Shown: in pieces, positions 8,126-8,350 of the stretch
How positions within the stretch are numbered: the stretch's first letter is position 1
Layout: every line of letters starts with the position of its first letter
IMG/VR virus record: IMGVR_UViG_2728369393_000012
DNA from: a virus
Lineage: Duplodnaviria > Heunggongvirae > Uroviricota > Caudoviricetes
Length of the DNA stretch: 21,819 nucleotides
Strand: one strand, 5' to 3'
Made by a program: the position numbers and the translations under genes
The notes under the pieces: generated by a model
The model's database searches: none
The model's input: only the letters and a program-made list of their open reading frames with translations
What the model was told of the DNA's origin: nothing

Positions 8126-8149
8126 ATTCACCCCACAAAAAAGCCCGCC

Positions 8150-8350
8150 TGTATACGTTTTACCGGGCATGATGTCTTTTCCGGTGTGTCCATGACATAC
8201 AGTCCATACGCCAACGATATCTTCGTATGGTATGTAGCTGACACCTTCCAGGCCATCGTCACCACTCGGACCAGTGATGAGCACAGACGCTATGGCAACA
8301 GCCCCACCACCAATAGCAGCAGCAACGGCTTTTCGTAATGATGGAGGCAT
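8150..8350 (-). pseudogene. R: SAR endolysin (phage 21 R-type) N-terminal about 67 codons, fused in frame to the stf upstream region by a deletion
   Basis: [30 protein letters not shown]...[11 protein letters not shown] matches the phage 21 R N-terminus from memory; similarity stops after GKTYT and stf begins 24 nt later. Confidence 0.7.

Follow-up and report, generated by a model that had tools for sequence, protein, structure and literature searches.

The window, by which we mean the whole stretch of 21,819 nucleotides analyzed here, holds an entire, heavily degraded lambdoid prophage situated between ybhC and ybhB-bioA, that is, at the lambda attachment site. It is 100% identical over positions 1..4421 and 99.99% identical over 4837..20998 to the EHEC strain CFSAN004176 (NZ_CP014583.1), which belongs to serotype O145:H25 (PMC5567499). 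Read along the minus strand, the prophage begins with int-xis, followed by a copy of IS600, the early-left genes, exo, the truncated bet and ninG genes, the nin221 phosphatase gene and Q. Beyond Q come a moron region, a pinholin gene, a 512-codon open reading frame (ORF) and a frameshifted stfC, and the element closes with IS600 copies, nleG, two small ORFs and espJ before ybhB is reached. The remnants of ninG and bet lie head to head (11709..12047, meeting at about 11850) and are called as pseudogenes by PGAP; the same junction recurs in five related strains. It marks a second large deletion, in addition to the one that is our subject, and this deletion has removed the immunity, early-promoter and replication region. 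The intervening Q gene, an antiterminator of the lambda type (10427..11050, minus strand), is annotated as intact.

Several further features of the prophage deserve mention in their own right. The moron region (8708..10189) lies between the Q and pinholin genes, where Stx phages have stx, and it codes for a 247-codon membrane protein with a Pfam TfpB hit and a DUF3927 protein, along with an antisense 132-codon ORF that PGAP lists as hypothetical. The type III effector genes espJ (981..1634, plus strand) and nleG (2533..3114, minus strand) lie beyond the tail-fiber remnant, where lambdoid prophages of EHEC usually carry their cargo; nleG has been lost in five relatives that carry a further deletion described below. 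In the early-left region there is an annotated gene for an LprI-family lysozyme inhibitor (16545..17243, plus strand). Three copies of IS600 (3222..4378, 4721..5877 and 17916..19072) and another IS3-family element (about 14909..16077) are packed into this single 20-kb prophage, and more than 50 IS600 copies have been reported in O145:H25 (PMC5567499). Beyond this very high IS600 copy number, the genome paper on CFSAN004176 has nothing on the prophage (PMC5567499). Between two of the IS600 copies, a 415-nt segment (4422..4836) is present in the window and absent from NZ_CP014583.1; within it, a stretch of 134 nt (4436..4569) shows 90% similarity to the region surrounding the 3' end of stfC. This discrepancy reflects either a difference between assembly versions or a repeat collapsed in the public record.

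Anatomy of the chimeric reading frame

The ORF at 6812..8350 on the minus strand, which spans 512 codons in the ORF list of the window, is composed of endolysin codons 1-67, eight codons from the remnant of the lom-stf intergenic region and a whole stf gene of 437 codons. RefSeq carries its product as WP_394338411.1, a 'prophage tail fiber N-terminal domain-containing protein'. A preliminary description of the interval 8126..8350 had read it as 67 codons of a SAR endolysin continuing through an eight-codon linker into Stf; the interval indeed comprises exactly the 75 non-Stf codons of the ORF, and both the coordinates and the partition into 67, 8 and 437 codons proved exact against the translation and the alignments to the intact parents.

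The endolysin portion, here called R' (8151..8350, minus strand), comprises the first 200 nt (codons 1-66 and 2 nt of codon 67) of a SAR endolysin gene of the phage 21 type, and these 200 nt are 100% identical to the intact 165-codon rrrD of strain 2013C-3264. Residues 1-67 of the chimera match the phage 21 endolysin R (PDB 3HDE) and RrrD (4ZPU) with E-values of about 2e-38, and by a manual count of the alignment 63 of the 67 residues (94%) are identical to R21, the substitutions being I18V, N31D, K43E and L62P. As I18V is the sole difference within residues 1-30, the N-terminal SAR segment is preserved; it is weakly hydrophobic and rich in Gly and Ala, with basic residues ahead of it. The translation also retains the catalytic triad E35-X8-D44-X5-T50, which conforms to the E-X8-D-X5-T motif of lysozymes (PMC9239132). 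The phage-21 affinity, the SAR segment and the early catalytic residues claimed in the preliminary description are thus all present, and so is the loss of the lysozyme fold that it had noted: the match to PF00959 is limited to residues 34-67, equivalent to profile positions 3-36 of 125, whereas an intact relative covers positions 3-125, so that the ORF lacks a complete lysozyme domain. Given that the C-terminal lysozyme fold, into which the released SAR helix would refold, is missing, muralytic activity is not expected, and R' is best regarded as a truncated remnant that would not constitute a functional SAR endolysin.

Directly upstream of R' lies an intact 71-codon gene for an S21-type pinholin (8350..8565, minus strand), recognized by its match to PF04971 (E-value 1.4e-32), by our reading of the sequence and by its annotation. 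The match spans profile positions 1-63 of 64, as befits a full-length class II holin, and the protein begins with MYQM, offering Met1 and Met4 as two candidate starts; the same protein (WP_000284515.1) is annotated as a holin in an intact prophage. The TAA stop of the pinholin gene and the ATG of R' overlap by one base (TAATG), in agreement with the coupling to an intact pinholin gene that had been described.

On the other side of R', the 25 nt at 8126..8150 (minus strand) are a remnant of the lom-stf intergenic region, read here as codons 68-75 (GGLFCGVN) and identical to the sequence upstream of stf in the O145:H28 strain RM9872. This remnant holds the 3' arm of the lom terminator hairpin, a T-run and the native Shine-Dalgarno sequence of stf (GGGGTGA). 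In the window this hairpin has lost its 5' arm; when whole, it folds at -20.4 kcal/mol. The stf gene itself (6812..8125, minus strand) is complete, with 437 codons plus a stop and its own ATG at 8125..8123, and its length of 1,314 nt equals that of stf in RM9872 (4027..5340 of locus L002). The stf-side query shows 98.4% nucleotide identity to RM9872, with the 26 nt upstream of stf being identical, and 26 places in the genome match the query, in keeping with many paralogous copies of stf. Residues 76-512 of the chimera recover a full-length Stf architecture, with PF08400 at 76-208 (E-value 4.5e-69) followed by collagen repeats (PF01391) and PF06820. Both the native start codon of stf and its Shine-Dalgarno sequence are therefore still embedded within the longer ORF. 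The adjacent tail-fiber C-terminal gene, stfC (6542..6810, minus strand), is inactivated by a 1-nt deletion near position 6766, evident on alignment with the intact 89-codon copies of RM9872 and of the contig L011 discussed below, and PGAP labels it 'frameshifted'. The J-lom-stf-stfC cluster is broken, J and lom being deleted and the stfC partner frameshifted.

The deletion junction, its inheritance and further decay

We mapped the junction by a three-way alignment of the intact rrrD of 2013C-3264, the chimera and the intact J-lom-stf region of RM9872. Identity to the R side is 100% through nt 200 of the gene (window position 8151), and identity to the stf side begins 26 nt upstream of the stf ATG, at the very same position, placing the junction at 8150..8151. 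The C at 8151 is common to both parents, and there is neither filler nor IS sequence at the break. An alignment of the kind proposed in the preliminary description thus yields both endpoints and a single shared base. The join makes a hybrid of codon 67, which reads ACA in place of the ACC of R and still specifies threonine, and the right endpoint falls in the loop of the lom terminator hairpin. Across 5,426 complete E. coli genomes and 50,697 phage records, all R-side matches end at 8151 and the stf-side matches begin there, and none of the 50,697 phage records spans the junction. Both flanks are collinear with intact phages and are separated by one clean break, at which the rest of R through lom, and hence the genes that the preliminary description had called lost, are missing. 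The equivalent positions in an intact relative are separated by 21.7 kb of DNA, which contains the spanin gene Rz, rha, the terminase, portal, protease and capsid genes, all tail genes, J and lom; genes essential to the phage are among them. An IS-mediated origin of the deletion cannot be shown from a junction devoid of IS remnants.

In the intact relative the stf frame is free of stops over the 39 nt upstream of its ATG, so a deletion ending within this stretch would be in frame one time in three, and the in-frame join is within what chance would produce. Deletions of this type also recur: in the unrelated dog isolate Z1323PEC0012 (NZ_CP148275.1; 4004..7432 of locus L009), where the gene order runs from holin, ydfR and lysozyme straight into a lom lacking its N-terminal part, then stf and stfC, an independent deletion has joined the 3' flank of the lysozyme gene to the truncated lom.

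A 601-nt sequence across the junction is present with 100% identity in six of the 5,426 complete E. coli genomes, namely CFSAN004176, 2014C-3011, three O177:H25 isolates from cattle and OkiPb01679 from Japan. These genomes were assembled independently, from the USA, Canada and Japan; the chromosomes of the three O177:H25 isolates were verified by optical maps (PMC5814490), and several draft assemblies carry the junction as well. An exact-pattern scan with a 37-nt junction sequence found no instance in one genome per species and none in the JGI metagenomes. Accordingly, the junction appears to be confined to a narrow lineage of E. coli. The five complete genomes other than CFSAN004176, whose loci we retrieved, share both the ybhB-bioA flank and the bet/ninG junction, which indicates that the scar has been inherited. 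In the same five of six genomes, a further deletion (from window position 7921 to 2377) has eliminated most of stf together with stfC, nleG and the IS600 copies found there in the window, leaving an ORF of 156 codons. PGAP annotates what is left in these relatives as two pseudogenes, 'glycoside hydrolase, incomplete' and 'tail fiber, incomplete'. The scar has thus been handed down within this lineage, where it shows continued erosion and no evidence of being conserved.

An exact-sequence look-up in a collection of 15 billion proteins found the 512-codon protein of the window in three contigs, a second 512-codon allele in one and a 425-codon allele, resulting from an in-frame contraction of the collagen region, in two. 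The truncated 156-codon form occurred in five contigs, with a 142-residue end-of-contig fragment of it in a further 15. The second 512-codon allele resides in contig L011 (GCA_005384205.1, BFKX01000053.1, 458..4200), where it is followed by an intact stfC, an EspF-like gene and then the hya operon. Compared with the window it has no differences in the 998 nt up to ORF nt 326 and 26 in the following 1,213 nt; the differences between the two alleles, at 12 non-synonymous and 14 synonymous sites, are clustered and all lie beyond nt 326. This distribution points to recombination inside stf with another prophage, as opposed to slow divergence under selection, and the genomic context of L011 suggests either recombination between prophages or an inversion with a crossover inside stf. 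We rejected the ratio of non-synonymous to synonymous changes (dN/dS) as evidence of selection on the chimera, since the clustered differences were most likely imported from functional stf paralogs.

Expression and competing readings

The translation signals of R' are identical to those of intact R genes in sequence and share the TAATG overlap, and hence the ORF would be translated if it were transcribed; translation could then begin at the R ATG and, independently, at the native stf ATG. Our own reading of the sequence following Q identified promoter hexamers in a late-promoter region (TTGACT at 10384..10379), and Q together with this region is 96-98.6% identical to phages 2B8 and HK446, the latter with an annotated promoter. 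The pinholin gene and the chimeric ORF could be transcribed only from the late promoter under antitermination by Q. A promoter scan of 6400..11800 was uninformative, returning five sites where 6.8 are expected by chance. Expression of Q normally depends on pR and on antitermination by N, and the bet/ninG junction has removed the region where the pR/N elements lie in lambda. Furthermore, the stretch separating the morons from the pinholin gene contains at least two hairpins resembling terminators. Based on the loss of the early region that would drive Q and on these hairpins, we infer that there is most likely little or no expression of the ORF.

In light of these observations we propose that the chimera is very probably a neutral, unselected scar of prophage decay, produced by an ordinary deletion that happened to be in frame. 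A lambdoid, effector-carrying prophage integrated at the lambda attachment site (ybhC | ybhB-bioA) of an EHEC of the H25 lineage would have suffered one illegitimate deletion of about 22 kb, which began at codon 67 of R and ended within the loop of the terminator hairpin of lom, 26 nt ahead of the stf gene. With it would have gone the catalytic body of the endolysin, the spanins and terminase, all head and tail genes, J and lom, so that neither lysis nor virion production was possible any longer; the survivors would be stf, the pinholin gene and, further downstream, the genes of the type III effectors (nleG and espJ). Because the deletion ended by chance in the stf frame, within a stop-free stretch, R' would read through into stf. 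In favor of neutral decay are the truncation of the ORF in five of six genomes, the stfC frameshift, the deletion of the immunity and early region and the IS insertions. On the other side stand the retention of the translation signals of intact R, the integrity of Q and the late-promoter region, and the persistence of three stf allelic forms, two with 512 codons and one with 425, whose frames remain open in separate strains, although the last of these is what a recent event combined with recombination with paralogous stf copies would lead one to expect.

One alternative, which we consider improbable, places the significance of the locus in stf itself. The relevant product would be ordinary Stf made from its own ATG at 8125, the upstream extension being irrelevant, and the gene would be kept as a tail-fiber donor, through complementation or recombination, for the many other lambdoid prophages in the genome. 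A full-length gene with its native ribosome-binding site would suit this proposal, as would the abundance of paralogous copies at 26 matching places and the recombination within stf between prophages; however, its stfC partner is frameshifted, most relatives have deleted stf, and the promoter scan made no dedicated promoter evident.

Still less probable is a functional chimera, in which the SAR segment sends Stf via Sec to the inner membrane or periplasm, where it takes on a new role together with the intact pinholin, for example in superinfection exclusion, in an envelope function or as an abortive-infection module. The near-identity of its SAR domain to that of R21 (save I18V), the start signals of intact R genes, the intact pinholin and Q genes and the three open alleles are all compatible with such a role, and in work on P1 Lyz from 2004 SAR domains were reportedly sufficient for the export and release of fused passengers. 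A SAR::Stf product, if made, would probably be exported and tethered, and would possess neither lysozyme activity nor a tail to attach to. Equally hard to credit is a more specific version, an accidental gene birth whereby the fusion is weakly transcribed, or transcribed when the cell is stressed, and its product is exported by Sec and released upon depolarization by the pinholin to form a collagen-like fiber in the envelope; were this the case, an envelope-located SAR::Stf could hinder infecting phages or modify the cell surface. Against a functional chimera, five of the six complete genomes that share the junction retain just 156 codons of the ORF, one deletion in three would give an in-frame join, the early region leading to Q expression is deleted and stfC is frameshifted. 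Moreover, activation of R21 requires the SAR helix to refold into the lysozyme body, of which 34 of 125 profile positions are left.

Finally, that repeated prophage sequence was collapsed into a false junction during assembly, as the many similar lambdoid prophages in the genome and the nearby repeat-related uncertainty of the 415-nt difference from RefSeq between two IS600 copies might lead one to suspect, is effectively refuted by the identical junction in six independently assembled complete genomes, three of them verified by optical maps (PMC5814490), and in drafts.

Relationship to known systems

WP_394338411.1 is mislabelled, as its first 75 codons derive from an endolysin pseudogene and intergenic sequence and not from a tail fiber, which calls for caution with this annotation. 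The locus also provides a base-resolved example of how effector-carrying lambdoid prophages of EHEC become fixed in the chromosome, a single deletion removing lysis and morphogenesis while sparing the virulence genes. A chimera that was actually produced would represent a natural fusion of a SAR domain to a passenger, and nothing in our analysis suggests such production. Judged by sequence comparison, all the parts of the chimera are already known: they are 94-100% identical to well-known genes, and in sister genomes the junction is represented by the two annotated pseudogenes.

The N-terminal part is comparable to phage 21 R21 and to RrrD of DLP12 (3HDE, 3HDF, 4ZPU), with 94% identity to R21 over residues 1-67 and with the SAR segment and the triad in place, and, as in the lysis cassette of phage 21, R' comes immediately after an S21-type pinholin gene whose stop codon overlaps its start. 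Unlike R21 and RrrD, the chimera retains 67 of 165 residues, and the spanin genes are also gone. Its C-terminal part resembles the stf genes of EHEC lambdoid prophages, combining PF08400, collagen repeats and PF06820 in a full-length 437-codon Stf with the small stfC next to it; it departs from them in the absence of J and lom upstream, the deletion of the 5' arm of the lom terminator, the addition of 75 foreign codons and the frameshift in stfC.

At the level of the whole element, the closest parallels are among defective prophages. Qin and DLP12 of E. coli K-12 are deletion-riddled cryptic lambdoid prophages that have a lysis cassette and tail-fiber genes and lack morphogenetic genes. The prophage of the window is akin to these, and to the defective effector prophages of EHEC, in the loss of its head/tail and immunity functions, in its IS insertions and in the survival of cargo (nleG, espJ) beyond the tail-fiber genes. 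It differs from scars of the Qin/DLP12 type in that its deletion is in frame, with the result that annotation pipelines call one long 'tail fiber' coding sequence where two pseudogenes would otherwise be recorded.
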